This document shows, piece by piece, positions 11,542 through 53,844 of a stretch of DNA of 56,441 nt. Location: contig JAZDOO010000406.1 in assembly GCA_043798555.1 (NCBI GenBank), positions 1 to 56,441 on the forward strand, read 5' to 3'. The notes under the pieces were generated by a model. That model had not been told where the DNA came from and did not search any database. It saw nothing but the letters and a program-made list of their open reading frames with translations. The translations under genes were made by a program, and so were the position numbers. Positions within the stretch are counted from its first letter, which is position 1; every line of letters begins with the position of its first letter. The stretch comes from Pseudomonadota bacterium. GTDB taxonomy: Bacteria; Desulfobacterota; WTBG01; JAGOGO01.

Positions 11542-11639
11542 TTTTGCAACCACCTTTTAGCTCGTAGCTTGATTCCAAATTAATCTTGCAGTATAAGGCA
11601 ACTTAACACGCAAGTAGGTTCTTGGAGCTTATCACTGTC

Positions 11640-13974: not shown

Positions 13975-15624
13975 CTATAGAACGTAGACTACCATGTTAT
14001 CTCCATCAACCCTGATCCTTTGCCCGGTCTTGATCTTTTTCGTCCCCTCGAGTGTGCCAGTGACAACAGGGATGCCAAACTCCCGCCCCATAATAATAGC
14101 ATGTGACATACCCCCACCCATATCGGTAACTACGCCGCTGACTATATGAAAAACGGCGATCCAAGGAGCAGCTGTAAACGGAGCCACCAGGATTTCTCCT
14201 AGCTGTACCTTAGCGAGATCGCTTTCATTCATTACTACTCGAGCATTTCCCTCCACAATGCCAGGGGCTCCGCCGGCGCCACAGATGTGAGCCATAAAAT
14301 TTGGCCGAACTTTACGAGATGCTCCAACTACCCCAATTAGGGGGTCTTTCTTTACCAATTGATCAAGCTTCGCTATCTGACCAAGAAATGGCGGCGGCTC
14401 GACCTTGAGTGCTTTGTGCCACTCCTCTTTGCGCCATCGGGCAAGCCGACGGTAGTCAACCCTTTCCAAGGGGACGATCGCCTTTCTTATCTCCCACGGC
14501 ATTAGCATAAAGACATCAAACGGCTCATCAATTACTCCCGCACGGGCAAACCTCTTACCGACTTCCCAAATCACTTTACGCGTTACCGCATTTTGTGCTA
14601 ATTCACAATAAGGCGTATGGTCTTCGCTCCACGAGGCAGACATCTCTGCCGCCTTCAATAACTTGCCAAACCATTCTTTTTTCTGCATGGGCACCTTTGC
14701 CATGACCGTACTCTCTGCCTGCTCCCTTTCTTTAGCCAGACGCTCCCTTTCGACATCGGGGGCAAAAGCCTCTTTGGCTATCGTTCGCCTTATGTCCGGT
14801 AGCCCCAAACTTGGCTGCTCAATCCAAGACGGAGTCGCCCAATCCACCATGCGCTGACATCTCCAACCTCGAGACTTAAGGAATTCCAAGTATTCAGTGA
14901 GCCACTTTCTGCCAGAATCGCTTGACTTGAGTTGGGCCATTAGTTGCTCGTCATCGACAGTTGCCGTGAAAAGGCCAGCAAGCCCCATTTCATCCGCCTT
15001 CTTGCCAAGAAGCCACATTTCCTTACTTATTTGAAATAGCGTATTGTCGAAGCCACTTCTCAGTTTATTGTGTATCGGATCATCAGGCTTAATCCCTATG
15101 AACTCCTCACAGGCGCTGGTAAAGAGCTGATCAATGCTGTATAGCCCATACTGCCAGTAAAAGTGTATTTCGTGGACCTTGAGAAAGACGTCCCAGACCT
15201 CAAAAATCAACTCCCGGAGTTTGCAGGCACTCACCGTCTCAATATCCACCTCCTGGATGTTCCTGTAAAGGCTCCAGATTCGCCCTCGATCTCGATTCCA
15301 GTTACCTTCAGGGTCCTCTAGTAATGCTGACATTCGCTCCTGGAAATGCTTTCCCCGGGACAGAACCTCCTCAGGTTTGGGCTCTATGGCCGTGATATAG
15401 ACATAACCATTATGGATCTTCCACTCCCAACCTTTGGTCTCAGGGCATGACAACAGCTCTGCAGCGTGCTGCATGCCATAAGAAGTCAACTCGCAGAACA
15501 TGAACGCGTAAAGCGGAGTCCATGCCGGATACCCATGAACTACATCGCAGATCCACACTGTATAATTCTTAAGGTCCACTTCTTCGTCTAACACAACCCC
15601 GGTCAAACCGTAGTCAATAGGCAT
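13975..15624 (-). CDS. Phenylphosphate-synthase alpha-like protein (PEP-utilising enzyme, mobile phosphohistidine domain), second copy
   Basis: 549 aa. The C-terminus GAPGIVEGNARVV...ILVAPFTAAPW...TDMGGGMSHAIIMGREFGIPVV...DGDNMVVYVL is a PEP-utiliser swivel domain with the His motif. The N-terminal region is colinear with the 618-aa copy at 21166..23019. Confidence 0.7.
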   Translation of the reverse strand: MPIDYGLTGVVLDEEVDLKNYTVWICDVVHGYPAWTPLYAFMFCELTSYGMQHAAELLSCPETKGWEWKIHNGYVYITAIEPKPEEVLSRGKHFQERMSALLEDPEGNWNRDRGRIWSLYRNIQEVDIETVSACKLRELIFEVWDVFLKVHEIHFYWQYGLYSIDQLFTSACEEFIGIKPDDPIHNKLRSGFDNTLFQISKEMWLLGKKADEMGLAGLFTATVDDEQLMAQLKSSDSGRKWLTEYLEFLKSRGWRCQRMVDWATPSWIEQPSLGLPDIRRTIAKEAFAPDVERERLAKEREQAESTVMAKVPMQKKEWFGKLLKAAEMSASWSEDHTPYCELAQNAVTRKVIWEVGKRFARAGVIDEPFDVFMLMPWEIRKAIVPLERVDYRRLARWRKEEWHKALKVEPPPFLGQIAKLDQLVKKDPLIGVVGASRKVRPNFMAHICGAGGAPGIVEGNARVVMNESDLAKVQLGEILVAPFTAAPWIAVFHIVSGVVTDMGGGMSHAIIMGREFGIPVVTGTLEGTKKIKTGQRIRVDGDNMVVYVL

Positions 15625-15819: not shown

Positions 15820-17910
15820 TCAGTTCGCTTTATATACCTTGCAAACGATTCCTCTCAATATAGGCGAACCCATCTCTTTGTTAAACGGTGGTTCGTCATT
15901 CGTGAGGATATTGAGATTCGATTCTCTCCAGCCATACATATCTGAGTCTCTTCTTTCAGGAAACCACCAGCCAAAGTCCACACCCACTACTCGTGGATCA
16001 ATATCACCTGAAAAGAAAGCTTTTTGTTTAATCCTCCCGCGTTTAGTTTCTATGTAGACCCAATCACCATTGCTTATGTGAAGGCCCCTTGCGGTTTCCG
16101 GGTGGATGTGGACAACCGGTTCAGGATGTAACCCGCGTAGCGTTCTAATTTCCCTGCCTCCAGTATGGCGGTAGGAGTCTAATTTCCAGTTGGTAAAAAT
16201 CAGTGGATATTCTTTAGCCAGTTCAGCATCACTGTAAGGTGTCTCAGGGTTTTCATAATATATAGGCAACGGATCAAACCCCCATTCCTTAAGCCGACTG
16301 GAATATAATTCAACTTTACCCGACTCCGTTTTGAAACCTTCTTTCTCATACTGTCTATAAAGCTTAGACCCCGCTATTACTCCTATTTTCCTCGCTTCGT
16401 CAAAGGTAATACCCGCTGGTGCCACGATAACATCAAGAACTTGGGTAATATCTTCCCAGAAGTATTCTCCTAAACCCATCTTCTTTGCCAGATCTCTTAA
16501 AATGTCATAGTCTGATCGGCTTTCACCTACCTGTCCAACCCTTTGTTGAACCGATGCTATTTCATAGTATGGTAAGGGTAAAATTCCATCACATTCAAGG
16601 AAGCTCGCTACTGGTAGCACTACATCAGCCAAAGCTGCAGTGGGAGTCATAAACATGTCCGCTACTACCAAAAAGTCCAATTTGTTTAGCGCCTCATATA
16701 TTTTTTTTGAATTATTCAACGAAATCACTGGATTGCATCCCTGAACATAACCAACACGGATAGGGTAAGGATCATTGTTTAGGATGGCTTTGACTATATC
16801 TTGAGGTAAAGCATAGAAGGCTATTGGTAATAGATTCTCTTTGGCACTGACTCTTCGTTTACGCAGTTCTGGCGATATTCTGTCAACCATACTAATTTCC
16901 GGCGAATGCCGAGCCAATATTGGTAAGGGTGACCATTTCAGTTCCCCGCCAGGAACACCGAGATTACCTGTGATGGCCCTAAGAATACAGATAGCACGAG
17001 CACTCTGGAAACTATTTATTCCTTGGTCAATACCGTTACCCCACTGTATACAGGCAGGCCTGTTCATCGCATAAAGGCGAGCGGTAGCTCTTATTGTTTC
17101 CGCCGGCACCCAGGTTATTTCAGCTACCTTCTCTGGAGAGAAATTTCCAACATGGGACTTTAGCTCGTCAAAACCCACTGTCCACTTGCTAACAAAATTC
17201 TTGTCATAAAGCTCCCCGTTTACTATAAAATTTATCATACCCAGAGCTAAAGCTAAGTCTGAGCCTGGCCTGAGCTGAAGCCAAATCTCTGCCCCATCAA
17301 CCAGTCTATTTTTTCTAGGGTCAATCACTATCAGCTTCGTGCTTCTGCCTAATGCCTCATTAATTTTTCCAAAATCCCCAACACATGTATCAAATGGGCT
17401 TGTACCCCATAATATCAGACAGGATGGTGGATATTCATAATCTGGCCGCGCAAGGTAGCCATAAGTGAGCAATGAAGCATTCTTCCTAGGAACGAAGCAA
17501 AGGTGAGCCATCGAAGAAATATTCGGTGAGCCAAAAAGATTGGCGAACCTCGTCATATAATCTTCCTGCAAGCCCTTAGCTGCGCCACGGATGAATGCCA
17601 CTGATTCGACACCATACTGATCCTTGGCTTTTTTTAATTCCGCGGCTACGGTATCCAAGGCCTCGTCCCAACTGACTTTTTGCCATTTTCCTTCTCCCCT
17701 CTCTCCTACCCTCTTCACTGGGTGCTTGAGCCGATCAGGATGGTACAGGAGTTGTAGGCCAGCTTCACCTTTTACACATAATATACCCCTATTTATTGGG
17801 CTATCAGGATCACCTGTTATCCTGACGGGGTTACCATCCGCCAGATGTATTAAAATACCACAAGCCATGTGGCACATGCCACAAGTGCTGTTTACTAATT
17901 CTTTTGCCAT
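15820..17910 (-). CDS. Molybdopterin (bis-PGD) oxidoreductase family enzyme, no Tat signal
   Basis: 696 aa. The N-terminus is CGMCHMACGI...C (a [4Fe-4S] motif). The candidate metal ligand is Cys in SSMAHLCFVP. The C-terminal dinucleotide-binding barrel is VHIHPETARGLHISNGDWVYIETKRG. No twin-arginine leader. Confidence 0.85.
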   Translation of the reverse strand: MAKELVNSTCGMCHMACGILIHLADGNPVRITGDPDSPINRGILCVKGEAGLQLLYHPDRLKHPVKRVGERGEGKWQKVSWDEALDTVAAELKKAKDQYGVESVAFIRGAAKGLQEDYMTRFANLFGSPNISSMAHLCFVPRKNASLLTYGYLARPDYEYPPSCLILWGTSPFDTCVGDFGKINEALGRSTKLIVIDPRKNRLVDGAEIWLQLRPGSDLALALGMINFIVNGELYDKNFVSKWTVGFDELKSHVGNFSPEKVAEITWVPAETIRATARLYAMNRPACIQWGNGIDQGINSFQSARAICILRAITGNLGVPGGELKWSPLPILARHSPEISMVDRISPELRKRRVSAKENLLPIAFYALPQDIVKAILNNDPYPIRVGYVQGCNPVISLNNSKKIYEALNKLDFLVVADMFMTPTAALADVVLPVASFLECDGILPLPYYEIASVQQRVGQVGESRSDYDILRDLAKKMGLGEYFWEDITQVLDVIVAPAGITFDEARKIGVIAGSKLYRQYEKEGFKTESGKVELYSSRLKEWGFDPLPIYYENPETPYSDAELAKEYPLIFTNWKLDSYRHTGGREIRTLRGLHPEPVVHIHPETARGLHISNGDWVYIETKRGRIKQKAFFSGDIDPRVVGVDFGWWFPERRDSDMYGWRESNLNILTNDEPPFNKEMGSPILRGIVCKVYKAN

Positions 17911-18260
17911 TTCTTTCCTACCTCATAGTATAACATCTGCATTGATGTATCCCTTACTACCTTTTTTAGTTATGCTAATGAAAAGTCTCTCAGCTCTCGT
18001 CATACACGACGTGCTATTAGTAAATGACTTAAACGAAATCAAACCCTAAACTGGCCACCAAGGTCTAATGACAAAATACCAAATTAGAACGATGAGAGGA
18101 AGGTTGAGAACTTCACCGAATCCCGAAACAATTTTATGATTAATACCCCAACCTAAATATACCATCCAACGTTTTATTGTATAGATTATACCGTACTTGA
18201 AATTCACTGATATGTATTATCTAAGCTAATATAAGAAAATCCATACCCAGACCAACTCTC

Positions 18261-19661
18261 CTATTTTTCAACATATTTCACTCTTTCCAACCCCTTAATC
18301 CTCTCGTCTATCCAGCGTCTCACTTTATACTCAAAGCGAGGCAAACTTCCATGGGGAACCTCTTCGACTCTCATACTTACATAGGTCTTTTCTTTTATTT
18401 TATCAGCCAGTTTCTTAAGTATCTCAGCTTTTGTTTTTTCATCTAAAGGCATCTTCCTAAATTCCACAGTTACCATGGCGATTTCAAGGCCGTTCTCATC
18501 TATAAAGACTCTCCCATTATACTCTTCTATTTCTCGGAAAGAAAATACTGCTTCATCAACCGTTTGGGGCCATACATTGGTAGCCTTTATTTTGATCATA
18601 TCATCGTACCTTGAAATTGTACCTACCTCCCACAAAGCTGATTCCCTACCACAATCACAAAGCCTCGGTGGAAGTAACTTTACTCGATCATTTGACCTAA
18701 AGCGAATGAGTGGCATGGCTTCCCTGGAAAAAGTTGTTATGACAGGTTCTCCCCATTCGCCGTATTTGACGGGCTTATCCGTAGCCTTGTCCAATACTTC
18801 AACCAAGGCAAAATAGTCTGCCAGGTGATAGTATCCAAATTGCCCGTCAGGTACGACCCCATATTTACAGGTAATTGCATAGTTCAAGTTTAATTGAGTG
18901 GACCCATAAATGTCATGAATCACTGTACCCCATATTCCCTCCATACTCAGTGCCCAGGGAACTGAAAAAGGTTCTGTAGAAACAGTAATACCTTTTAATC
19001 GAGGGAATTCTTTCTTAGGGTCTAATCCTCCCTCCATGCAGATGGTTGTTATGCGGGTGAGATAAGCCGGTGTAGTGAGAATATGGTGGACCTTGAACCT
19101 CCTCATCATATCGATTCTTTGATTGGTATTGAAGACTGCCAGAGGTAATGGGGTGGCTCCGAAAATTCGAAGAGCTTCATAAGACAACATGCCACCGGTC
19201 ATGGTGCCCAGGGGGTATAAGACGGCTGATATATCTCCCTTCTTTAATCCAATTGCCGCAAAATGAGTTGCTGTTGAAGCATTGGCCGCCCAGATCGCTT
19301 TTTCATCATGGCAGTGCACCTCCTGCCCCATCCCTGACGTGCCACTGGTCACATTAATCCGACGGATCTTATGTAGTGGTACACAAACTCTCCTTCCGAA
19401 AGGGGGGGTTGATTCTTGATCTTCTACCAATATTTGTTTATCTATGAATGGAAATCTGGCTATATCTTCAAGCTTCTTAAAATTTTCCGGTTTTACTTTT
19501 GCCTTATCAAAGACTTCACGATAAAATTCACTTTTATGATAGGCCCTTTCTAAAGTTTCTTTAGTTTTTTGGAACTGTAGTGTCTTTACTTGATCTATAG
19601 ACATAGTTTCCAATTTTTTAATAAAATAATTATTTTGTCTTGGTATCCTTCTTCGATCCAT
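18261..19661 (-). CDS. Phenylacetate-CoA ligase (PaaK)-family adenylate-forming CoA ligase
   Basis: 466 aa. LETMSIDQVKTLQFQK...FYREVF is a PaaK-type N-terminus, with the nucleotide loop VTSGTSGMGQE. The length is typical of the short PaaK-type ligases. Confidence 0.75.
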   Translation of the reverse strand: MDRRRIPRQNNYFIKKLETMSIDQVKTLQFQKTKETLERAYHKSEFYREVFDKAKVKPENFKKLEDIARFPFIDKQILVEDQESTPPFGRRVCVPLHKIRRINVTSGTSGMGQEVHCHDEKAIWAANASTATHFAAIGLKKGDISAVLYPLGTMTGGMLSYEALRIFGATPLPLAVFNTNQRIDMMRRFKVHHILTTPAYLTRITTICMEGGLDPKKEFPRLKGITVSTEPFSVPWALSMEGIWGTVIHDIYGSTQLNLNYAITCKYGVVPDGQFGYYHLADYFALVEVLDKATDKPVKYGEWGEPVITTFSREAMPLIRFRSNDRVKLLPPRLCDCGRESALWEVGTISRYDDMIKIKATNVWPQTVDEAVFSFREIEEYNGRVFIDENGLEIAMVTVEFRKMPLDEKTKAEILKKLADKIKEKTYVSMRVEEVPHGSLPRFEYKVRRWIDERIKGLERVKYVEK

Positions 19662-20081
19662 TAACTTCTCCTTTTTTGGTCTTTTAATTTTAGCCTATAA
19701 CCTGAGAAGATGTTTTCTTGTTTGTGATTTAATGCCATATCTGGGAAAAACATTCGATTCGATGACATTTACTAACACTGAGCTTTATAGATTTTGCAAT
19801 GTAAATTCCGAAATGCCCATCCTCCACTAACATTGTTAAAAATATCATATCATCCATCAACATGTTACATCTTGATTTTAGCGCTGATGTTTGGTTGTTT
19901 CCGAAATTCCAGAAGTGATTGGAGCACAATATCTCCAGAGTCGTTAAGTGTAGCTGCGAGCTACAAGCATAAGGCGTGTTGCACGGGTGGTATTCATAAA
20001 TTTAAGGTTAGGAAACGACCCGTAAGGTTCCATTCCTATTTTTTCGGTTCACATTAGTAACTCAGCCTTTTGTAAAGGAAG

Positions 20082-21152
20082 TTATCTTTTTATGTGAGTA
20101 AGACGATGGACCATGGTTTTAATTGCTGAGCTTTGAGTTCCCAAGACCGGTTTTTTTTCAACCTTACTCCAAATGGTCTCCGGCCTCGTTTGTAACAAGA
20201 AGACGTTTCTCGGAAACTCCAAGTCTTGGTCAATAGCCCATTCTATATCCTGCGCACAACCGTAATGTTTTTCTATTTCTTTGCCCAGCCTGGCCAACTC
20301 GATAACTTCTTCACTGGTTAGGCAAAGTATATCTTGCATTTCCGGCGGGATATCCTCAAAAACAGCACTTTTGGTCTTCAAGTCATACACGCATTGCGTT
20401 AATTTCTTTTTGGTTATAACTTTAGTGATTTCAAGTCTTACCTTGTCCACCATCCAGTAATCTGGAACAACTCTGCCCGACACCACACTCTCACCTAAGC
20501 CCCAACTCCCTTCTATCGTAATTTTAGAATTATCTCCATTGGTGGTGTTTAAGGTAAACATAACACCAGCCACTCTGGCATTTGTCATTTTAAGCACACC
20601 AACGCCTATCGGGTCATACTCCAGCAATAACCCTCCACGGGCACGCGCCATTAAAGATCGAGTATTAAAGGTGCTTGCCCACACCTTGACTATTTTTTGA
20701 ATCACGTCTGACTCACCTCTAACGTGAAGAAAAGTCTCATACTGTCCCGGGTGGCTTTCTGGTCCTGCAGAGCGGGTGGCGACGGGGACAGCATCGATGC
20801 CAGTTCTTTGACACAACTCATCATAATATGCGACTATTTCATCTTGCATATCTGTAGGCATCGCTTTTGATTCCACTATACCACGAATTACTTTAGATGC
20901 TTCCTCATATTTTGGTATATCCCGAGGGTTATTAGGATCGGCAGTGAAGGTATCCAGATATCGGCGGATTTCTTCAATAGCACCAGTTCTGGTTAAGAAC
21001 CTCTTATAAGCTTCCAAAACTAGCGCAAACCCAGGAGGTACCCTAAATCCCCCCTTAGTTAGTTCTCCTAAATTAGCACATTTTTTCCCCACTAAACCGC
21101 TGTGTTCCTTGCCTAACTCATCAAACCAATATATCCATTTGGTCAAACTCAT
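20082..21152 (-). CDS. Phenylphosphate-synthase beta-like protein (PPDK/PEP-synthase N-terminal ATP-grasp domain)
   Basis: 356 aa. VGKKCANLGEL...GFRVPPGFAL and AVPVATRSAGPESHPGQYETFL are typical of the nucleotide-binding domain of PEP synthase/PPDK. It is encoded as a separate polypeptide directly after the alpha-like gene (13-nt gap). Confidence 0.75.
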   Translation of the reverse strand: MSLTKWIYWFDELGKEHSGLVGKKCANLGELTKGGFRVPPGFALVLEAYKRFLTRTGAIEEIRRYLDTFTADPNNPRDIPKYEEASKVIRGIVESKAMPTDMQDEIVAYYDELCQRTGIDAVPVATRSAGPESHPGQYETFLHVRGESDVIQKIVKVWASTFNTRSLMARARGGLLLEYDPIGVGVLKMTNARVAGVMFTLNTTNGDNSKITIEGSWGLGESVVSGRVVPDYWMVDKVRLEITKVITKKKLTQCVYDLKTKSAVFEDIPPEMQDILCLTSEEVIELARLGKEIEKHYGCAQDIEWAIDQDLEFPRNVFLLQTRPETIWSKVEKKPVLGTQSSAIKTMVHRLTHIKR

Positions 21153-21165
21153 TTACTCAGTTTCC

Positions 21166-23019
21166 TTATTGTGCTTTCTCTATTATATTAACGATCCCAT
21201 TATCTCCATCTACCCTAATCCTATCACCAGTCTTGATGGTTTTAGTGGCAATACCTGTTCCCACTACGGCTGGAATGTGGTATTCACGAGCAACGATGGC
21301 GGCATGACAGAATACTCCACCGAGATCGGTAACACATCCTTTAATACTCCCAAAGGCTGGTGACCACATAGGGGATGCAGTTGGGGCGACTAAAATATCA
21401 CCTACCTCAAGTTGGGGCAAGTCATCGGCTGACATGATAACTTTAGCCAGCCCTTCCGTAACACCAGTGGAACCAGGCATGCCTTTTAGCTTGACTACTT
21501 TAAAATAGTCAACTTCTTTTTGCTCCAACCAGCTATCCACCACCTCAGTGGTGATTCCCCAGAGAGCAATGGTCTCCGGTTCGGTAACTACTTCAGGTGC
21601 AAGACCTAAAGCCGGATCTGGACGGTTTTTCCTAAATATTTCGAGTATCTTTTTTCGTTTCTCGATTTTCTTTGGGACTAAATATTTGGCGACTGGTTTC
21701 ACGCCGGTAGCCCAAGCAGCGCAGACATCATATAACACTTGGTAGAGTTCAAACCGATTCAGATACCAAATGTCCTCTTTATCTTCTACGCATTTATGGT
21801 TGGCAAGTATCTCACCCAACTGCCTCATTTTTCTCCAGAAGAATACGTGGAACCGATTTTCCACATAGAAGATATGGTTTTCAGGATATGGAGCAACTAG
21901 CCGCGCCAACTGTAAAAGTTGATCAAACCCCTTCCTGTCTTCGTCGGTTGGAATAAGGCTTCGATACTCTGCCGTAATGCGGTCTCTTTCTGCAATGACT
22001 TGCTCCCTGGGTCTGTCGATAGTTCCACCAGCTTGTAGAGCTTCGATATATCGTTTTACGATGCTAAAGGGATAGTTCAGATCGTCGTTCCAAGCAATAT
22101 CCGTGTGATACCAGCCAGTACCAATAGACATTTCAAACCACGGATCACGAGCCCTCTCCCATGCATCAAGCCATTTTTGGCCATTCCCTAACTGCTTTAG
22201 ATTAGACTCTACCTTCTCCCAGGAATTAGTGGCTGTGAAAGCCTTTTCTAACCTGAGTACCATGGCCAGTTTGGCCAACTTCTGAAGTTCCTCGGCAGGG
22301 CGAAAGATCAGACCATCGAAGGCCTTAGAAGTTTCAGTGATTGCCTTATCGGTGATATCGGGTAGGAGTGCCTTAAAGCCATCGGTATAAGCAACATAGG
22401 CTCCATAAGTCAAATTGTCGAATTCCATGTGATACTGCCATGCCCTCTGTGCCAACTGGATAAGCTTGTCATAAGTTCTTAAAAATCCATCGGTTGAACC
22501 GTAGCCCCTTGCCTCAAAGACTATTGATTCTGGTTCGACATCAGGGAGGTCTTTCACCTCAACGGCCTTCAATTCATCTAGTAACTTTTCAAATTTCTTT
22601 TCCCAATTCTCATAAAGCTCATTCCAGTGATCATAATAATAAGTTGCTCTCTTCTCGAATAAAGGAATTCGCTCTTTTATCTCCTCCGGGTCCGTAACCT
22701 CGATAGCATTAAGGTAGATATAGCCGTTGTGGATTCTGTGGTCAATCCCCTTAGCTGTTGGTATCAAGAACAGCCGGGTATTGTTTTGTGATAATGTAAT
22801 ATGCCACATATCATCCCATAATAAATCGAATGGGTACATCGGCTCGGGGTAGTGCAAACCATCGTAAAACCAGAAACGGTTATCTTCATAAGCGTTTTTT
22901 TCTGGGTTATCACCACCGAATAAATAGTAATAGGGATACATCTCCCGCCAACCTTCTGCCCCAGGAATGTCCACGAGTTTTGACGGACTTTTAAATCTCT
23001 TTTCTTGTTTCGCCACCAT
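21166..23019 (-). CDS. Phenylphosphate-synthase alpha-like protein (PEP-utilising enzyme with phosphohistidine swivel domain)
   Basis: The C-terminus GMPGSTGVTEGLAKVI...ILVAPTASPMW...TDLGGVFCHAAIVAREYHIPAV...DGDNGIVNII carries the His motif. The start is set at the ATG at 23019 (MVAKQEKRF), preceded by GAGGAG. The track ORF extends to 23091. Confidence 0.75.
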   Translation of the reverse strand: MVAKQEKRFKSPSKLVDIPGAEGWREMYPYYYLFGGDNPEKNAYEDNRFWFYDGLHYPEPMYPFDLLWDDMWHITLSQNNTRLFLIPTAKGIDHRIHNGYIYLNAIEVTDPEEIKERIPLFEKRATYYYDHWNELYENWEKKFEKLLDELKAVEVKDLPDVEPESIVFEARGYGSTDGFLRTYDKLIQLAQRAWQYHMEFDNLTYGAYVAYTDGFKALLPDITDKAITETSKAFDGLIFRPAEELQKLAKLAMVLRLEKAFTATNSWEKVESNLKQLGNGQKWLDAWERARDPWFEMSIGTGWYHTDIAWNDDLNYPFSIVKRYIEALQAGGTIDRPREQVIAERDRITAEYRSLIPTDEDRKGFDQLLQLARLVAPYPENHIFYVENRFHVFFWRKMRQLGEILANHKCVEDKEDIWYLNRFELYQVLYDVCAAWATGVKPVAKYLVPKKIEKRKKILEIFRKNRPDPALGLAPEVVTEPETIALWGITTEVVDSWLEQKEVDYFKVVKLKGMPGSTGVTEGLAKVIMSADDLPQLEVGDILVAPTASPMWSPAFGSIKGCVTDLGGVFCHAAIVAREYHIPAVVGTGIATKTIKTGDRIRVDGDNGIVNIIEKAQ

Positions 23020-23132
23020 CTTTATTCTCTCCTCTTTCAATCTTTCAATATTAAACCCCAGTCTAGTACTACAGCGCCGGTTAGTTGACATTTAATATAT
23101 TTTATGAAGATAAAGTACTATTGAATGCGAGC

Positions 23133-23639
23133 TTATAACATTTTTTCTAATAGAAGTGTGATAAATCCAACAACCTCATCTTGCTTTTTACTTGCCACAA
23201 TATGTACAGCTTTCGCGATATTTTCAATTTCTTTAAATCGCTCCAAATGAGGCTTTGAGAGGACATCTCTCGCTGAAATGCCTTTCTTTGCAAGGGCTTC
23301 TTTAACATTATTGCTTAGTTCCTCGATAAAAGCTCCCGGGCTTTTTTGAAGTTCATAGTTATACTCTAACTTGTTACCTTCTCTGTAAGTTGATGATTGC
23401 TTCAAGCTTCGTTCATCATCTTCATCCATCAATACAATTTTTTCTACTTCCATTGGTGCTCGATCAATAACGATCAATCCGGGATAATCTCCTTTTGGCC
23501 GCTTAATAACCAGTCGCCCGAAATGTTCTATTCGTTCAATCACATAATATTTATCAAAACATATGGCATCTGCTTCAACAGCTACAACTTCCTGCCATCC
23601 ATCTTTCCATTTTATCAAAACATGCTTCTGATCAGACAT
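23133..23639 (-). CDS. Hypothetical protein (168 aa), operon-embedded
   Basis: A good RBS (AAGGGGG) precedes it, and spacing to both neighbours is tight (13 nt and 41 nt). I recognise no family. The N-terminal half looks beta-rich, the middle is acidic (LMDEDDERS), and the C-terminal half looks helical. Confidence 0.6.
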   Translation of the reverse strand: MSDQKHVLIKWKDGWQEVVAVEADAICFDKYYVIERIEHFGRLVIKRPKGDYPGLIVIDRAPMEVEKIVLMDEDDERSLKQSSTYREGNKLEYNYELQKSPGAFIEELSNNVKEALAKKGISARDVLSKPHLERFKEIENIAKAVHIVASKKQDEVVGFITLLLEKML

Positions 23640-23652
23640 TTAGCCCCCTTTG

Positions 23653-24396
23653 TTAAAACATCCTTTTCATTATTTCTTTCACCTCAAACCAGTCCTTTGC
23701 ATAGTAATCGCTCGACTCGCATGGACCCATATCAATATGACCAATATATTGTATAGTGATCCATCCTCGCTTCTTTGGTGGAATAATATCCGTACTCACT
23801 TTGTCACCGATCATAAGACAGTCTTGTGGCTTAATCTCCTCTAATGCAAGCTCTTCGATTAGGAGATCGTATAAGGTCCCCGACTCTTTTGATGTTCCTC
23901 GATAAGCCTCAAACCTCTCACCGGTACCAAGATCCATCTTGCCCTGAGGTGTTATGAAGTATTTAAAGTACTGAATTATCTTTTTGTTCATCAAAAACAT
24001 AGTAATCGCATCAGCTCCCACCGGACCAAGTGTTTTTTTTAGCTCAGAGATTATGCTTGGCCTAATTCCTTGCTCGCTCAACCACATTATGAACTCATAG
24101 GCTCCTGGCGCCAACGCAAGGAGCTCCTGTTCCTTTTGATTAAATATTTCGTATGCTTCGTGATCGCCATCCAAGACATATGATTCAATCTCATCTTTGT
24201 GGCCTTCCTTGATTCCGCTGTAACTCCCGTATTTTTCTTTTAGCCTTCGCATCCGATCAATCCACACCGGAATCATCTCATGCTTTCCGATCAGTTTGCC
24301 GATCTCGCTAAACATCCTGGGATTACGTAACGATGACGGGGTCATCAAACACTGTCCATAATCGATTCCGACCCATTTGATTTTCTTTGCTGTCAT
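23653..24396 (-). CDS. HAD-superfamily hydrolase-like protein
   Basis: 247 aa. Motif I is WVGIDYGQC, with the nucleophile Asp present but the second Asp replaced. Motif IV is LMIGDKVSTDI. Confidence 0.6.
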   Translation of the reverse strand: MTAKKIKWVGIDYGQCLMTPSSLRNPRMFSEIGKLIGKHEMIPVWIDRMRRLKEKYGSYSGIKEGHKDEIESYVLDGDHEAYEIFNQKEQELLALAPGAYEFIMWLSEQGIRPSIISELKKTLGPVGADAITMFLMNKKIIQYFKYFITPQGKMDLGTGERFEAYRGTSKESGTLYDLLIEELALEEIKPQDCLMIGDKVSTDIIPPKKRGWITIQYIGHIDMGPCESSDYYAKDWFEVKEIMKRMF

Positions 24397-24501
24397 GACT
24401 ATAACCCTTTCTTACCTATGCAAAGGTATTGGCCACAGTTTGATATTGGCATATAACGGGCTGGAAAGGTTATCGAGACAAGATTCTGCGCGGTATAGCC
24501 T

Positions 24502-25938
24502 TTACATAAATAACTCAGGAAACTTCTCCTTGATCGCTCGCGTTGATTGGTCAGACGCTCTCGCTGATTTTGGAAACTTATTTCTCCAATGCCATGGTTT
24601 ACATGCATCAATCAGCATCTTAGCCTGAGTGATCTCACCATTTGCCCTCTTCTTGGGGCTAAGAGACGGGTCCAGAGGGCTGTTCTGGAAGCCCCTCACG
24701 ATATCAACAGAATTTTCTATATCACATCGCATACAAACCACAGTTACTACTTGTTCGAGATTTGAAGGATCAACATCCTCATCAACCACAATAATGAACT
24801 TACCAACAGCGGCGCCACCGGTGAGTAATCCAGCAGCTACGGTAGCCACCTGTTTGGCATGTCCCTGGAATCTTTGCTCAATTGAAATCACACACACAGG
24901 CCGGTTGCCTGGTCCATGAATATAAACCCCTTTTATTCCTTGAAGCCCTGCTGCCAGAAGACTATTCCACAGAGTGGGTACAGTATGCACCGGTATCGGA
25001 TAAAATGTATGTGCAGGGGGTGGCACTGGTGCCTGACCTTGAAGGATAGGATCATTGCGATGATAGATCGCCTTAATTTTTGCCACTGGATATTCCTTAG
25101 GGACGCTGGCGTAGTAGCCAGTCCATTCTCCAAAAGGTCCCTCTACCATTTCCTCTCCCTGAGTCATCAGACATTCAACAGCAATCTCTGCCGTGGCCGG
25201 AATGGGTAACCCGGTTATTGGACCTTTAATAACTTCTACGGGTCGTCCTTTGAAAAAACCTGTAGCCTCAAACTCACCCATCCCCCAGGGGAGTGACATC
25301 ATGCTAAACCCTAGTAAAAGCGGATCTTGTCCAAAAGTTATCACCACTGGAAATTCCTTGCCGTTTGCCCAGTACTTACTTCTCATGATTGTAGCATGCT
25401 TACCTGGGCCTGAATATACATTAATAGTACTTTCGTTTTGAACCATACAACGATATGTTCCGCTATTGACAAAATCTCCATCTAATTCTTTAGTAATAAC
25501 ACAGTTCGCGGTTCCTATGTACCTTCCCCCGTCTTCTTCATGCCACTTCGGTACTGGAAATCTTAAGATATTGACATCATTACCAGTAATAACATTTTCC
25601 ATAACCGGACCCGTATTGACATATTTAGGGGGTACCGGCTTCTGCTTCGCAAACTTATCCGCCCAATCTTTGATAATTTCGGTAGCTGATACCTTTTCAT
25701 CCATACCAAAAGCAATCCTTTGTCCAATTTGGTTCTGAACAACATTCGTCAGTACTCGATATCCAGGATAACCAGGGATCTCATTAAAAAGGATCGCCTC
25801 TCCACTTCTCATCGCAATCATTTCGCTAATCGTCCCAATCTCAAGATCCCAATGCGCTCCGTCGACCTTCTTCAGGTTTCCCGCCTTCTCCAGAGTATCA
25901 ATCAAACTCCTCAACTCATCATAATAAACATCTTTCAT
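24502..25938 (-). CDS. UbiD-family (de)carboxylase
   Basis: 478 aa. The N-terminus is LKKVDGAHWDLEIGTISEM...GEAILFNEIPGYPGYRVLTNV. Length and architecture are typical of UbiD and the phenylphosphate-carboxylase alpha/beta subunits. Confidence 0.8.
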   Translation of the reverse strand: MKDVYYDELRSLIDTLEKAGNLKKVDGAHWDLEIGTISEMIAMRSGEAILFNEIPGYPGYRVLTNVVQNQIGQRIAFGMDEKVSATEIIKDWADKFAKQKPVPPKYVNTGPVMENVITGNDVNILRFPVPKWHEEDGGRYIGTANCVITKELDGDFVNSGTYRCMVQNESTINVYSGPGKHATIMRSKYWANGKEFPVVITFGQDPLLLGFSMMSLPWGMGEFEATGFFKGRPVEVIKGPITGLPIPATAEIAVECLMTQGEEMVEGPFGEWTGYYASVPKEYPVAKIKAIYHRNDPILQGQAPVPPPAHTFYPIPVHTVPTLWNSLLAAGLQGIKGVYIHGPGNRPVCVISIEQRFQGHAKQVATVAAGLLTGGAAVGKFIIVVDEDVDPSNLEQVVTVVCMRCDIENSVDIVRGFQNSPLDPSLSPKKRANGEITQAKMLIDACKPWHWRNKFPKSARASDQSTRAIKEKFPELFM

Positions 25939-26173
25939 TTTGACCCCCTCTTACTGTGGTTTCACTTTTTCTTAAGAATGACAGGGTTATAAAGCCTTGC
26001 GCCCATCTGAACGGTAGCCACAGGCTGTGCCAAAAAAATATTATCTCGTAAACTCTCCCCACGTTTTCTGTAATCACTGCCCCCCCTAAACTCACTCAGG
26101 AAAGAAGTAACCCCTAGCGTTGCGTACAAAATTATTGAACATCGAAGGGGGAAAAGTGTCAATTCATTTTTAT

Positions 26174-26210
26174 TTATGATATTAATAAGAAAAAGTTATG
26201 ATCTTTATAA
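26174..26210. promoter_or_regulatory. Two tandem TTATGAT-N4-ATAA (T-N11-A type) boxes, candidate LysR binding sites
   Basis: TTATGATATTAATAA (26174..26188) and TTATGATCTTTATAA (26196..26210). They lie 22 bp apart centre to centre, in the divergent UbiD/LysR intergenic region. Confidence 0.4.
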
Positions 26211-26268
26211 TAGTAAAGTAAAAAAGCCGTCATTGAAAACCCTTTTGGGGTCTTTAGGAGGGATACAA

Positions 26269-27246
26269 ATGCTTAATTTGAATCAGTTGCGGGTATTTCA
26301 CCAAGTAGCAAGATCGCTGAATTTCACCATTGCTGCGAAAAATCTATTCGTGAGCCAGCCTGCCGTAACTGCTCAAGTTAAATTATTTGAGAAACTTTGT
26401 AACCTCGAACTATTTAGAAAAAAGGGTCATCAGATAGTTCTTACTGATGAGGGACAAACAATCTTTCGGTACGCCTCAAAAATATTCGAACTGGAAAGGG
26501 AGATGGAGCAGGTCATTGAGGACCTGAGAAAGGTAAAACAAGGCTATCTCCATCTTGCTACCAGCAAAACCTATGCTCGGTATTTGATGCCTAGTCTTCT
26601 TGCAGCCTTTCATAAATCTTTTCCTGGTATAGCAATCGATTTGAATGAGGGAAGTTCTCTGGATATGACCCGGAGCCTGATAGATTTCAGGAATTCGGTT
26701 GCTATCGTGGCCAAAGTTGAGGATAATTCCAATATAAATTTTATCCCTTTTATTCGTGAAGAAGTATTGTTGATAGCTGCTTCGGATTATCACTTAACTA
26801 ATAGAGATGAGATAGGTTTTGAGGAATTGATTGGTGAACCTATCATAATGAAAGAAGTCGGTTCTGGAACTAGGAAATTAATAGAAGAATGTTTCAAAAA
26901 GAAAGTAGAGAGGCTAAATATAATAGCCGAAACCAGCAACGTAGAATTTATCAAGGAACTAGTAAAACAAGGTGTGGGGATCTCATTTCTGGTTAGGACG
27001 TCAGTCAAAAGGGAACTAAGTCAGGGAGAGCTTGTAACCATCCCCATAAAGGATAGTAGCATATTTTTAGATGTTTATCTTGCCTATTTACGTGACTGTC
27101 ATCTTCCTATGACTGCAAAGGCTTTTCTAGTAGATTTCCTACTGCCAATGATCCCGAAAGAGTGCCCTTATCTTGGGGTGGATAGCTTTGTGGCCGAGAT
27201 AACGGGAAAAAGGTGTAAAGAGGGGTTGAGAACCTTGCAGAATTAG
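26269..27246 (+). CDS. LysR-family transcriptional regulator
   Basis: MLNLNQLRVFHQVARSLNFTIAAKNLFVSQPAVTAQVK is the LysR HTH, followed by a substrate-binding domain. The start is set at 26269, behind AGGAGGG. It is divergent from the UbiD operon. Confidence 0.85.
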   Translation: MLNLNQLRVFHQVARSLNFTIAAKNLFVSQPAVTAQVKLFEKLCNLELFRKKGHQIVLTDEGQTIFRYASKIFELEREMEQVIEDLRKVKQGYLHLATSKTYARYLMPSLLAAFHKSFPGIAIDLNEGSSLDMTRSLIDFRNSVAIVAKVEDNSNINFIPFIREEVLLIAASDYHLTNRDEIGFEELIGEPIIMKEVGSGTRKLIEECFKKKVERLNIIAETSNVEFIKELVKQGVGISFLVRTSVKRELSQGELVTIPIKDSSIFLDVYLAYLRDCHLPMTAKAFLVDFLLPMIPKECPYLGVDSFVAEITGKRCKEGLRTLQN

Positions 27247-27377: not shown

Positions 27378-29588
27378 CTATTTTTCATGCTCCTCACATG
27401 GATAAACCTTGCAGAGCAATGCTCGTAGCGGCCACCCGCCGTTTATAGAGTTACAATTATCCGGATCATCATCAGTAAGGATATTAATGTTAGATTTCCA
27501 GACTCCGTAGAGCGATGGTTCTTCACCTGGATCTTCCGGAAACCACCAGCCATGCTGAGCATGGACAACTCGGGGGTCGATTCCATCAAAGTATTTCAAT
27601 ATATGCCTGCATCGCCCCCGGGGAGATTCGATCCAAACCCAGTCACCATCTCTAATTTCTAGCTTTTTCGCTGCCTCTGGATTCATTTCCATTATTGGCC
27701 AAGGGTAGTTTTTCCGGTGCTTTTCTATCTGGCGATGTTCGGAATTATAGTAGGGGAGAAACCTTCCGCCGGTAATGAGGATAAAAGGATATTCTTTCGC
27801 CAACTCCGGAGTATTCACCGGGCTTTCCGGAGGTTCCTTGAAAACCGGAAGCGGATCGTATCCGAGTCGTTCTAAGACCGTTGAGTAAAGTTCTATTTTA
27901 CCGGTTTGGGTACCAAATCCTGTCTTTTCATACCTTTTATATCCCCCTTTGCTGGCAGCGAATCCTCCCCTGGCCATGAACTCCTTAAAGGTCACCCCCG
28001 AACGTCTCAGTCGATAATCATATACCTCTTCTAAATCCTCCCACGGCCAATATTCTTTCTGTCCTAATCGGTCTCCTAATCCCTTCCAGAATTTATAATC
28101 AGACCACCGCTCATATTTTCCCGGTACGACCGGGGACATCGTCCTCTCGCTTCCCACAATCATCGCATAAGCCCAGATCCACGGTCTTTCTAAGTACGTG
28201 GTTCCAGGAAGAACATAATCGGCAAGTTGTGCACTCGGAGTCATGAAAAAATCTACCACTACATAAAGCTCGAGACGTTTCAAAGCCTCATAGACCAGTT
28301 TAGTGTTAGCCTGGGTTACCATGGGATTGCTGGAAAGAGTAATTATCCCTTTTATTGGATAGGGTTTACCGGTAATGGCGGCTCGGTAAAAAGTCGGTGC
28401 ATGGGCATACCGTTGAAACTGGCCTGAACGATTCAAGGCCAGCTTTCCCCAGGCCATTGGAATGAATTCCTGGATAGTATCGAACCCCTCACAGGAGAGG
28501 ATTCGAAATCGGTCCGCACCGAGCTGTTTTCTTCTTTGTTCTGGGGGAAGCATATGAAGGAGTTCCATATCCTGCTCAGGAATGATATCAGGATACGGAG
28601 TAGTGAAGATATCCCCCCCCTTTACATCAATATTCCCGGTTAATGCTCGCAATGTAAAAACGGCGTGGAGCGTTTCCATGGAATTTGCAGTGTGTTCAAT
28701 GCCAAGACCGTGGGTCAAGGCTGCCGGTTTGAGCGTAGCATACCATTCAACAGCCTGGCGAATCTTTTCTTCGGGAATCCAGGTAATCTCAGCTACCTTT
28801 TTCAAGGTAAATGGCTCCACTCTTTCTCGTAACTCATTAAATCCGAAACACCATTTTTCCACAAAGTCCTGGTCGTAAAAATTCGCTTCAATGACATAGC
28901 GAATCATTCCCAGAGCCAAAGCACAATCGGTGCCAGGTCTGACTTGAAGCCAGAGGTCAGCATGCCTGACCGTATCAATACCTCGAGGGTCGATAACGAT
29001 TACTTTTGTCCCTTCTTTATGGGCCTTGATAATGTTCCTCCAGAGGGCATTCCAGTAACGTGGACCGCCGCCACCCCAGACGATAATACACTGTGTCTCA
29101 GACTGCACGACCGGAAAAAGTTTCCATCCAAACATGGCGTACATTAAGGCCAAGTATTCTCCGTAGCAAATCTCACCCTGACCCACCATATTGGGACTTC
29201 CCATCAGGTTAAAAAACCGCCATCGAAACTCATCCGTAGTTCTCCCCGTGCCAGCGGTGGTACCTATGGTTTCCGGTCCATAGTGCTCAATCAATTGCTG
29301 CAACTTCCCTGCGATTTCATCTAAAGCCTGATCCCAGGATATTTGTTTCCACCTATTTTCTCCTCGCCCTCCGGCCCTTTTAAGGGGATAATTTAAACGG
29401 CTTGGATGATAAAAATAATCTACGATTGCATTTGCCCGAGGGCACCCTCTGACAATGGGTGCAAATAGCTCGGCCTTAGGAAAATCCATGTCAGGCTCCA
29501 CTCCAAGTAATCTTCCATCTTCGATGATTGCTGCTTGCCGACAGCCAGAATGACACTGAATACACACAACTTTCTTTCTTTCCTTCAT
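27378..29588 (-). CDS. Molybdopterin (bis-PGD) oxidoreductase family enzyme, no Tat signal (third paralogue)
   Basis: 736 aa. The N-terminus is CIQCHSGCRQ...C. The candidate ligand is Cys in GQGEICYGE. The C-terminal barrel is MEMNPEAAKKLEIRDGDWVWIESPRGR. RBS AAGGAGG. Confidence 0.85.
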   Translation of the reverse strand: MKERKKVVCIQCHSGCRQAAIIEDGRLLGVEPDMDFPKAELFAPIVRGCPRANAIVDYFYHPSRLNYPLKRAGGRGENRWKQISWDQALDEIAGKLQQLIEHYGPETIGTTAGTGRTTDEFRWRFFNLMGSPNMVGQGEICYGEYLALMYAMFGWKLFPVVQSETQCIIVWGGGGPRYWNALWRNIIKAHKEGTKVIVIDPRGIDTVRHADLWLQVRPGTDCALALGMIRYVIEANFYDQDFVEKWCFGFNELRERVEPFTLKKVAEITWIPEEKIRQAVEWYATLKPAALTHGLGIEHTANSMETLHAVFTLRALTGNIDVKGGDIFTTPYPDIIPEQDMELLHMLPPEQRRKQLGADRFRILSCEGFDTIQEFIPMAWGKLALNRSGQFQRYAHAPTFYRAAITGKPYPIKGIITLSSNPMVTQANTKLVYEALKRLELYVVVDFFMTPSAQLADYVLPGTTYLERPWIWAYAMIVGSERTMSPVVPGKYERWSDYKFWKGLGDRLGQKEYWPWEDLEEVYDYRLRRSGVTFKEFMARGGFAASKGGYKRYEKTGFGTQTGKIELYSTVLERLGYDPLPVFKEPPESPVNTPELAKEYPFILITGGRFLPYYNSEHRQIEKHRKNYPWPIMEMNPEAAKKLEIRDGDWVWIESPRGRCRHILKYFDGIDPRVVHAQHGWWFPEDPGEEPSLYGVWKSNINILTDDDPDNCNSINGGWPLRALLCKVYPCEEHEK

Positions 29589-29750: not shown

Positions 29751-29762
29751 TAGAAAAGGTAT

Positions 29763-31023: not shown

Positions 31024-31440
31024 ATGGCTCTCAAGAAGTGGAAAGAAACCTCAGAAGGGATTGAGGCGGCAAAGTTCACCTTTCAGCATCACGACCAAAA
31101 GTGGAAGAACGAGCGGAGGTATGTGGTGGTGAGACAAATGATTAACCGGCGGCCTAAGGTGATTCATTCCCTCAACCGGAATATTCTGAATGCAAAAGGA
31201 CCTTTTGAACAGTTCACGACACTTCGGTCCAAATACTTTATCATACCGGCAGTGCTTGAAGGGGAGGGGGTTATCCAGTGCTTCGTCTTTCGGTTCGTTC
31301 TCCTTTCCTTCATTGAGTTCGCAGCTATGGTCACACAAAATCGAAGGCCCCAAGAAGTTGGGGCCTTCGATCAGCTTTTCAATTCCTCAGTTACTTTCCA
31401 AACTTCTGGAGATAACCAATGGAGAACCGTTCCGGGGTAA
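31024..31440 (+). pseudogene. Possible remnant of a second DDE transposase (IS1380/IS4-like)
   Basis: FQHHDQKWKNERRYVVVRQ resembles the conserved ...W...RRVVV.E patch of IS1380/IS4-type transposases, and TLRSKYFIIPAVL resembles their C-terminal helix. The rest is missing or scrambled. The 3' end overlaps the DUF1329-like gene. This call rests on weak recollection only. Confidence 0.3.
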
Positions 31441-32737: not shown

Positions 32738-32817
32738 AATTACCTCCTTTGGATATATACTTTCAGGGCGGCCTTGATGATGGACCGCCCTCAATCGGTT
32801 CTTTTTACCCCATGTAA

Positions 32818-34362: not shown

Positions 34363-34518
34363 TGGACCTCCTCCTTAAAAAGGTTAACTTTTACCATTTA
34401 CCATTCACGATCTTCTTACCCGTAAAAAACCAGGTAATCAGGTTGCACCACCTCCTTCTTTGCTGAATTAGTTTTACTACCGCCAACGTCCAGTTACCTA
34501 TCTTCATCATGCCTTCTT

Positions 34519-36870: not shown

Positions 36871-36891
36871 ACCTTCTCCTCCCATCAATGA

Positions 36892-43058: not shown

Positions 43059-43064
43059 AGAGTC

Positions 43065-45559: not shown

Positions 45560-45571
45560 TGAGGAGCGAAG

Positions 45572-47635: not shown

Positions 47636-47645
47636 GAGTACCTCA

Positions 47646-48599: not shown

Positions 48600-48773
48600 G
48601 GCGGCGCCGATACGGCCCTTTCCCTCTGGCGCATATTCGTTAGAGGGAAATGAGATTCTCCTATGTAAAGGCTCCGTCGGTAACTGCTTGGGCAGTGAAT
48701 CACTGCTGCCAATAAGTTAACGTTTTCATAGTCAACACAAGATAACCAAACCCTGCATACAAGGAGGAACGCC

Positions 48774-53815: not shown

Positions 53816-53844
53816 AAAAATTTAAGGGAGGAGGTAATATAATT

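Follow-up and report, generated by a model that had tools for sequence, protein, structure and literature searches.

How might a phenol-type substrate be activated and carboxylated by an operon that combines a phenylphosphate synthase-like kinase pair with a single UbiD-family (de)carboxylase, and in which two unfamiliar proteins occupy the place of the usual helper subunits? The question is raised by a 56,441-nt stretch of DNA, hereafter the window (positions 1 to 56,441 of contig JAZDOO010000406.1, assembly GCA_043798555.1; locus tags V2A69_16445/16450), whose nearest relatives are metagenome-assembled genomes (MAGs) labelled delta proteobacteria. An open reading frame (ORF) check of the window, together with Pfam and NCBIfam matches, confirmed the layout proposed in the initial annotation: genes for UbiD, a HAD-superfamily protein, an orphan protein of 168 aa, and the alpha-like and beta-like kinase subunits follow one another on the minus strand, and a LysR-type gene is divergent (Table 1). 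We give roughly even odds (a probability of about 0.5) to the reading that this operon encodes an ATP-driven, phenylphosphate-type aryl carboxylation system built from non-canonical parts, in which the HAD and 168-aa proteins couple dephosphorylation to carboxylation. The principle of phosphorylating first and carboxylating afterwards is known; what is new here is a conserved, undescribed HAD/168-aa pair that replaces the usual helper subunits.

The kinase half resembles a described system most closely. For reference we used the annotated pps-ppc genes on plasmid pAZKH of Azoarcus sp. KH32C (locus L022), found by a tblastn search of plasmids with the window UbiD and arranged as PpsA, PpsB, PpsC, PpcB, PpcD, PpcA, PpcG, UbiD, UbiX, DUF120, NUDIX and AMP-ligase. 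The alpha subunit of the window is 49.5% identical to Azoarcus PpsA over 598 aa and passes the NCBIfam equivalogs PRK08296.1-4 (735.6 bits; cut-off 723) and PRK08296.1-5 (736.7 bits; cut-off 578), whereas models of phosphoenolpyruvate (PEP) synthase and rifampicin phosphotransferase gave only ~100–120 bits against cut-offs of 600–1000. It therefore groups with PpsA and with neither of the two other enzyme types, whose possible kinship had been raised at the outset. The protein consists of a substrate-binding region and a phospho-His swivel domain (C-terminal PEP-utiliser); the His motif CHAAIVARE, already noticed by eye, aligns with SHAAIVCRE of Azoarcus PpsA, and the catalytic His is aligned in every alpha-like protein examined. 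Read from its first ATG, the alpha ORF spans 641 aa. A start at the ATG at 23019 is most likely, because a GAGGAG ribosome-binding site lies 5' of it and because it agrees with the Azoarcus PpsA alignment; the PEP-utiliser gene is thus present as annotated, with 617 aa in place of the 618 aa first given. The beta subunit shares 40.7% identity with Azoarcus PpsB and matches PF01326 with an E-value of 1.2e-83. Judged by these alignments and model scores, the kinase pair is a member of the phenylphosphate synthase family.

The gamma subunit of phenylphosphate synthase is stimulatory rather than essential. Its CBS-type gene, present in the PpsABC system as PpsC, had been reported missing here, and tblastn searches of the 56-kb window with the canonical Azoarcus proteins as queries bore this out: no homologue of PpsC (best E 0.3), PpcD, PpcG or UbiX was found, and UbiD was recovered as a single gene, again as first noted. 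In Desulfatiglans anilini, a lower turnover of aniline has been attributed to a missing gamma subunit (PMC7500099).

The single UbiD matches PF20695, PF01977 and PF20696 and narrowly passes the TIGR00148 family model (248 bits; cut-off 244.85), and it fails both the PpcB equivalog TIGR02724 (244.5 bits vs 469) and the PpcA equivalog TIGR02723 (157 vs 565). Its identity is 31.5% to Azoarcus PpcB and about 26–28% to Azoarcus PpcA. The best match in the PDB is 7PDA, the PhdA protein of Mycolicibacterium fortuitum (E 3.4e-108, 39.6% over 462 residues), the closest structurally characterised relative; VdcC matches far more weakly (E 9e-46). In a neighbour-joining (NJ) tree, the window UbiD falls into a tight clade of sequences 70–80% identical, nested in a large environmental clade (48–59% identical) that is sister to PhdA and a UbiD of Aromatoleum aromaticum, and PpcB and PpcA branch outside this PhdA-side clade.

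The active site appears intact. The segments VNSGTYR, GKHAT, GEFE and VEGPFGEWTGYY align with the matching positions in PhdA and VdcC, so that the Asn, His and Glu ligand positions, the catalytic Arg and E-x4-E are kept, corresponding to sites for prenylated flavin mononucleotide (prFMN), metal and the Glu-Arg-Glu set; the aligned columns are those that we take to be equivalent to Fdc1 residues. The His ligand position is absent from PpcA and PpcB. With ligand and active-site positions preserved, the window UbiD looks like a conventional prFMN enzyme and is probably prFMN-dependent. PpcABCD differs in having an alpha/beta pair of UbiD subunits, whereas the window has one UbiD of another clade with the full set of prFMN and metal ligands. 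PhdA shares the active-site motifs; it decarboxylates the tricyclic phenazine-1-carboxylate, and its partners are PhdB (UbiX) and PhdC, with no kinase or HAD. At 40% identity, substrate specificity cannot be transferred from PhdA.

Two further UbiD contexts were observed. In locus L026 (2114-14113), a UbiD 54% identical to that of the window has neither the HAD/168-aa pair nor a kinase beside it and is surrounded by a corrinoid O-demethylase set (a B12-binding protein, two URO-D/MtaA-like proteins, RACo and MtrH), a reductive-dehalogenase-like protein, a tautomerase and UPF0261; from this context, the wider UbiD clade seems to use methoxylated or halogenated aromatic acids. The closest homologue found in a cultured organism is the uncharacterised EBN1_RS22170 on plasmid 2 of A. 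aromaticum EbN1 (L023, 9920-11434; 39.7% identity), which sits between an ATP-binding cassette (ABC) transporter and two UbiX/UbiD pairs with coenzyme A (CoA)-transferase genes, sets that we presume to represent phthaloyl-CoA decarboxylase.

The HAD protein gave an AlphaFold model with a predicted local distance difference test score (pLDDT) of 86.5, and Foldseek matched it (probability 1.0, template modelling score (TM) ~0.6) to PH1655, the N-acetylneuraminate phosphatase NANP and L-2-haloacid dehalogenases. As modelled, it is a C1-capped fold of the HAD-IA type. With 247 aa it exceeds the 169 aa of Azoarcus PpcD, in line with the remark in the initial annotation that it was larger than the canonical subunit, and the two also differ in type: PpcD is a KdsC-type HAD with the motif DVDGV, and the window protein carries D-x-G. 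Its motif I reads W-x-G-x-D-Y-G-Q-C, with the second Asp missing as had been seen in DYGQC, and this feature belongs to the family: Asp+2 is replaced by Gly in 29/29 homologues examined, under the consensus W-x-G-x-D-[FYM]-G-[QE]-[CT]. The nucleophile Asp12 is retained and motifs III and IV are intact, with Lys170 and G-D198-K-x-x-T-D203 invariant across the family; the full set of alignment invariants comprises D12, G14, Q15, C16, K170, D198 and D203. No PpcD-type NCBIfam model matched the HAD protein, and a sequence search of PDB chains returned nothing useful. A 441–492-aa "HAD fusion" in actinobacterial loci proved to be an artefact of ORFs called too far upstream in high-GC DNA.

The 168-aa protein, described from the start as unrecognisable, kept that status in every comparison. 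Neither Pfam nor NCBIfam matched it, 17 aligned family members scanned at E up to 10 gave scattered noise, with no match of any of them to a flavin-related Pfam family, and the family has no sequence match in the PDB. It carries a conserved N-terminal motif, KWKDGWQE, and its AlphaFold model (pLDDT 90) predicts a beta domain of eight strands and, after it, a helical domain; for this model Foldseek found no significant PDB fold match (best E 0.035, TM <=0.27). The leads from that search, namely the prFMN maturase PhdC (E 0.07–0.2, TM 0.23, root-mean-square deviation (rmsd) above 10 Å) and flavin split-barrel proteins (E at least 0.035, TM at most 0.27), were too weak to use. We likewise made no use of a 168aa-UbiD fusion in L017, which coincides with a frameshifted UbiD. 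At 90% identity the family falls into ~50 clusters, and 1.84 billion proteins contain ~101 representatives of it; it occurs in a short (161–175 aa) and a long form (205–250 aa) and carries no annotation anywhere. It is unrelated to the 85-aa Azoarcus PpcG (hhalign probability 1.8%); the sole similarity found between the two small proteins is that of YVIERIEH (residues 32-39) to RVIERVER at the PpcG C-terminus (L022 15451-15708, residues 72-79), identical at 5/8 positions and probably due to chance.

The neighbourhoods of this family carry the argument for a common function. A motif scan for the 168-aa family covered one genome for each of 185,579 species, and its results, together with four metagenomic family members, one UbiD homologue with the pair on its contig and the window itself, gave 27 loci; the counts below refer to the flanking sequence present at each. 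All come from uncultured organisms, in Desulfatiglandales, Syntrophaceae, Syntrophorhabdales, Desulfobacteraceae, Acidobacteriota, Dehalococcoidales, Gaiellales and other Actinomycetota. The HAD gene lies immediately 5' of the 168-aa gene in 25/27 loci, the other two being cut by contig ends. An aromatic (de)carboxylase gene is found in the flanks of 22 loci, usually adjoining the pair (UbiD in 12, an amidohydrolase_2 of the LigW/ACMSD type in 10), and a PpsA- or PpsB-like kinase subunit is nearby in 20. An AMP-forming ligase accompanies 14 loci, with the PaaK-type ligases of the window counted apart, and acetylene-hydratase-like Mo/W enzymes, homologous at 33–44% identity, occur in 10. Recurring in 27 loci and several phyla, the carboxylase-HAD-168aa arrangement is no chance juxtaposition. 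Literature searches for this gene combination returned no description of it.

Three arrangements could be distinguished. Group A, which includes the window, combines a UbiD of the PhdA-like clade with the HAD and 168-aa proteins, and PpsA and PpsB adjoin these genes or lie a few kb off in the window, L002, L024 and L028. The most complete of these loci, L024 from a Gaiellales MAG, encodes an AMP-ligase, NUDIX, HAD, a 170-aa protein, PpsA-like and PpsB-like subunits, UbiD, UbiX (directly 3' of UbiD), an LpdD-type chaperone and HD. Group B (8 loci: L004, L005, L007, L008, L010, L012, L014, L018) has the order PpsB-like, amidohydrolase_2, HAD, a 230-aa protein and PpsA-like, often continued by an AOR-type enzyme, a ferredoxin, an old yellow enzyme (OYE) homologue, an AMP-ligase and a Mo/W enzyme, with a Liv-type ABC transporter upstream; L013 and L020 have the same genes in a different order, and L015 is a short fragment. 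The best PDB relatives of the group-B amidohydrolase are LigW (5-carboxyvanillate decarboxylase, E 4.5e-29), ACMSD and the gamma-resorcylate, salicylate and 2,3-dihydroxybenzoate decarboxylases; NCBIfam gave no match for these amidohydrolases. Group C, in Actinomycetota, comprises a Mo/W enzyme, HAD, a 230-aa protein and a UbiD grouping with PpcB, with a divergent kinase and a second HAD paralogue nearby. Most loci of groups B and C show a 4-nt overlap between the HAD stop and the start of the gene behind it, which suggests translational coupling of the HAD and 168-aa homologues and a complex between them. Across the groups, the carboxylase swaps between two unrelated superfamilies, with pair and kinase retained, and the pair is the constant element.

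Some of these loci deserve mention in their own right. The group-B operon is well exemplified by L004 (6921-12290), and we found no description of such an operon. A DUF3047 gene follows the UbiD-HAD-168aa genes in the kinase-less loci L030 (2986-12847) and L001 (7934-8593). The opposite strand of L030 encodes an arylsulfotransferase, two sulfatases, an ATP sulfurylase and a 3'-phosphoadenosine 5'-phosphosulfate (PAPS) reductase, neighbours that hint at a link to aryl sulfate esters.

Set beside the PpsABC/PpcABCD systems of Thauera aromatica and Azoarcus sp. KH32C, the window operon shows the same split dikinase, with an ATP-grasp beta and a His-domain alpha subunit, a UbiD-family carboxylase encoded beside a HAD-superfamily protein and a small extra protein, a PaaK-like ligase near these genes, and hence the same apparent logic of phosphorylation, carboxylation and thioesterification. 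The Azoarcus cluster also has UbiX, NUDIX and DUF120, none of which adjoins the window operon. By sequence, the carboxylase half is an analogue of PpcABCD rather than a homologue. The variant aryl-phosphate synthase/carboxylase proposed in the initial annotation is partly supported: the kinase belongs to the PpsA/PpsB family, and the proposed logic, still the best account of the operon, gains strength from the 27 neighbourhoods, whereas the carboxylase half is not of the PpcABCD type.

Reversible decarboxylases of the UbiD type carboxylate phenols in the para position and those of the amidohydrolase type in the ortho position relative to the hydroxyl, with an unfavourable equilibrium. In the scheme that we consider, the ATP-grasp beta subunit and the phospho-His dikinase alpha subunit would, going by their families, phosphorylate a phenol-type hydroxyl to give an aryl phosphate. 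The conserved gene neighbourhood suggests that the HAD and 168-aa proteins would act as partners of the single, prFMN-type UbiD and as functional analogues of PpcD, and possibly of PpcC: Asp12 of the HAD protein might accept or remove the phosphoryl group and yield an activated phenolate at, or channelled to, the UbiD site, where UbiD would carboxylate it with CO2. More speculatively, the lack of an Asp+2 general acid could favour the release of an unprotonated phenolate. Reductive degradation would then start from an aryl-carboxyl-CoA thioester formed by a PaaK-type ligase. Because the alpha subunit is so close to PpsA, phenol itself or a small substituted phenol is the suggested substrate. 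Hydroxylated polycyclic or heterocyclic substrates are also possible, since PhdA uses a heteropolycyclic acid and the Mo/W enzymes, abundant in the neighbourhood, might introduce hydroxyl groups. A phosphorylate-then-carboxylate model of this kind accounts for the association of the pair with kinases as well as with carboxylases. In Thauera, the HAD-type delta subunit dephosphorylates phenylphosphate to phenolate, which is carboxylated by the UbiD-like core; in strict anaerobes, the composition of the carboxylase differs and remains unresolved (PMC7500099).

The same observations permit a more general proposal, which is possible, if on balance doubtful: the HAD/168-aa pair may act as a portable module for coupling, which lets the cleavage of an aryl phosphate, itself the product of a PpsAB-type kinase, drive reversible decarboxylases of the prFMN-dependent UbiD or the metal-dependent LigW/ACMSD type towards carboxylation. 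The pair would then have joined these two unrelated superfamilies on independent occasions. The enzyme classes found beside the pair are those of VdcCD and LpdBCD (UbiD type) and of LigW and the gamma-resorcylate and 2,3-dihydroxybenzoate decarboxylases (amidohydrolase_2 type), and we know of no characterised VdcCD-, LpdBCD- or LigW-type member that is coupled to a kinase or to aryl-phosphate cleavage. If the proposal is true, group B would represent the first ATP-driven ortho-carboxylation of phenols, a biological Kolbe–Schmitt reaction with energy input.

Several observations weigh against the proposed ATP-driven carboxylation. The Asp+2 that serves HAD phosphatases as general acid/base is missing from the HAD protein, and comparison of this protein with Azoarcus PpcD by BLAST and hhalign was not significant, overlapping only in the generic motif III/IV region; PpcD itself has Asp+2, contrary to the speculation that ties its loss to phenolate release. 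The grouping of UbiD, a check suggested in the initial annotation, is partly unfavourable: in the NJ tree it sits with PhdA and the Aromatoleum UbiD and not with PpcA/B, and PhdA, its nearest characterised relative, acts on a non-phenolic acid. The suggested search for ubiX and a second UbiD found neither within the 56-kb window. Four close group-A loci (L001, L029, L030 and L031) have UbiD-HAD-168aa and no kinase in the flanks examined, and in L003 the pair lies among housekeeping genes with neither kinase nor carboxylase. The kinases beside the pair are, moreover, polyphyletic within the PpsA family, with 24–30% identity between groups.

The kinase-less trios count in favour of the strongest rival explanation, in which the two proteins supply or mature the cofactor of UbiD, the HAD for example making dimethylallyl monophosphate or handling flavin mononucleotide (FMN) and the 168-aa protein serving as a prFMN chaperone like LpdD or PhdC. 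Consistent with such roles, L029 also encodes a CTP-dependent riboflavin kinase and a flavin reductase, several HAD family members are labelled "FMN phosphatase YigB" in the Joint Genome Institute (JGI) annotation, PhdC and flavin-binding split-barrel proteins are among the weak Foldseek matches of the 168-aa model, and the accessory proteins of UbiD enzymes are known to vary in kind (PMC10865409). We nevertheless regard this explanation as unlikely. At 10 loci the pair adjoins a kinase-flanked LigW/ACMSD-type amidohydrolase with no UbiD within 10 kb, and such amidohydrolases do not use prFMN; L024 already has UbiX, LpdD and NUDIX besides the pair; and neither the PhdC matches, which are not significant, nor the Pfam scans of the 168-aa family point to a flavin-related function. 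It is also conceivable that the genes are merely co-located in a catabolic island, with UbiD an ordinary reversible decarboxylase, the kinase serving another step or substrate, and the pair having a housekeeping or regulatory role or replacing PpsC as a kinase accessory. The window is indeed dense in paralogues (three acetylene-hydratase-like enzymes, two hydantoinase/carboxylase sets, two PaaK-like ligases), the L026 UbiD lives in an O-demethylase context without pair or kinase, and the kinase is missing from the flanks of some loci, with L003 as the housekeeping case. Co-location of this sort appears distinctly improbable to us, since kinase, pair and carboxylase occur together across Desulfobacterota, Acidobacteriota, Chloroflexota and Actinomycetota, and such conservation, in spite of shuffled gene orders and non-orthologous components, would hardly be expected if the parts were not functionally coupled; a kinase-accessory role alone, for its part, fails to explain the kinase-less UbiD-HAD-168aa trios.

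As a further alternative, an aromatic amine could be converted to an aryl phosphoamidate and then carboxylated, as in aniline degradation by D. anilini. That organism, compared here by its published description, is a strict anaerobe of the same broad lineage, and its system likewise combines a split PpsAB-like synthase without gamma, relaxed for aniline and phenol, with a carboxylase lacking PpcC and PpcD (delta), its parts perhaps recruited from different loci (PMC7500099). The window also encodes a second, divergent alpha-like subunit, 26.8% identical to Azoarcus PpsA and so about as divergent as reported for Pas-alpha of D. anilini (28% to Thauera PpsA; PMC7500099), and, elsewhere, an aminotransferase and an amine-oxidase-like gene. 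The operon alpha subunit, in contrast to Pas-alpha, is far closer to the phenol enzyme (49.5%), and the carboxylase of D. anilini requires two UbiD subunits of the PpcB type and works with neither a HAD nor a 168-aa partner (PMC7500099), whereas the window UbiD is not PpcB-like. An amine as the operon's substrate is thus very improbable, and the phosphorylation and subsequent carboxylation of a phenol-type compound remains our preferred reading. In the second alpha-like subunit the His motif reads SHAIIMGRE; the protein reaches 213.7 bits with PRK08296.1-5, under the cut-off, and has no beta gene of its own, two metallo-beta-lactamase-fold genes following it. It may share the beta subunit of the operon and thereby give a second substrate specificity, as Pas-alpha might.

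Table 1. Genes of the operon and its immediate surroundings in the window
Feature	Position	Strand	Length (aa)	Domains and remarks
UbiD-family (de)carboxylase	24502..25938	-	478	UbiD_N/UbiD/UbiD_C
HAD-superfamily protein, C1-capped (as modelled)	23653..24396	-	247	Weak Pfam HAD matches
Orphan 168-aa protein	23133..23639	-	168	No Pfam or NCBIfam match
Phenylphosphate synthase alpha-like subunit	21166..23019 (ORF to 23091)	-	617	PEP-utilizers
Phenylphosphate synthase beta-like subunit	20082..21152	-	356	ATP-grasp / PPDK_N
LysR-type regulator	26176..27246	+		HTH_1 + LysR_substrate; divergent
PaaK-type aryl-carboxylate-CoA ligase	18261..19661	-	466	AMP-binding + AMP-binding_C_2
Acetylene-hydratase-like Mo/W-bis-PGD enzyme, cytoplasmic	15820..17910	-	696	Membership tentative
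Second, divergent PpsA-like alpha subunit	13975..15624	-	549	PEP-utilizers; membership tentative

The genes of the operon are closely spaced, with gaps of 105 nt between UbiD and HAD and 13 nt both between HAD and the 168-aa gene and between alpha and beta; the gap from the 168-aa gene to alpha is 41–113 nt, depending on the alpha start chosen. Promoter and terminator scans of 17800-26400 performed no better than on shuffled sequence, and Rfam gave no match in the window. The divergent LysR regulator probably controls the operon; in locus L002, which is related to the window, a LysR gene 50% identical to it separates the kinase genes from the UbiD-HAD-168aa genes. The true start of the window's LysR gene is probably internal, as the helix-turn-helix (HTH) domain starts only at ORF residue 35.

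Beyond the 3' end of the beta gene come a gap of 420 nt, the PaaK-type ligase, a gap of 350 nt, the molybdenum/tungsten bis-pyranopterin guanine dinucleotide (Mo/W-bis-PGD) enzyme and then the second alpha-like subunit. The ligase falls under the cut-off of the PaaK models and shares 28% identity with the AMP-binding protein encoded in the Azoarcus ppc cluster. It likely performs the next step, thioesterifying the carboxylated product, and may form a separate transcript, as it lies 420 nt downstream. The Mo/W enzyme, whose best PDB match is acetylene hydratase (2E7Z, E 9.3e-118), is one of three paralogous cytoplasmic acetylene-hydratase-like Mo/W-bis-PGD enzymes in the window (15820-17910, 27378-29588 and 9360-11553). 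It has a His after the second cluster cysteine (C-G-M-C-H), the position that we take to be the catalytic Asp13 in acetylene hydratase. The copy at 9360-11553 (minus strand) is split into three overlapping ORFs of 408, 229 and 211 aa in different frames, covering the Fe4S4/Molybdopterin, Molybdopterin C-part and Molydop_binding regions; either the gene is a frameshifted pseudogene or the assembly is in error here.

Farther along the contig, overlapping ORFs on both strands at 29762-30676 include an HTH transposase-like fragment (HTH_32, HTH_29, HTH_33), probably the remains of an insertion sequence bordering the catabolic block. Between this block and a second one, four minus-strand genes at 31391-37989 encode DUF1329, DUF1302, an MMPL/RND-type transporter and a BNR/Ycf48-like protein, a cluster that may handle the transport of hydrophobic substrates. 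The plus strand at 41070-55626 holds two hydantoinase A/B sets of the acetone/acetophenone-carboxylase type (41070-47635 and 51728-55626), interleaved with a URO-D-like gene, a class-III aminotransferase and the second PaaK-like ligase and preceded by a PAS histidine kinase and a LuxR-type response regulator (38571-40791). These sets suggest a second ATP-dependent carboxylation pathway on the contig.

Overall, detailed understanding of anaerobic phenol activation has so far been confined to the Thauera-type PpsABC/PpcABCD system, and the operon described here, together with its relatives, points to a second, widespread solution, found so far in uncultured bacteria alone. If the HAD/168-aa pair couples phosphate-ester cleavage to carboxylation, it would offer a route to ATP-driven carboxylation of phenols with a single-subunit prFMN enzyme or an amidohydrolase-type enzyme, which would be relevant to biocatalysis, where the equilibrium is the main limit of reversible decarboxylases. 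The same reading, if true, would also allow better annotation of MAGs of aromatic-degrading bacteria.

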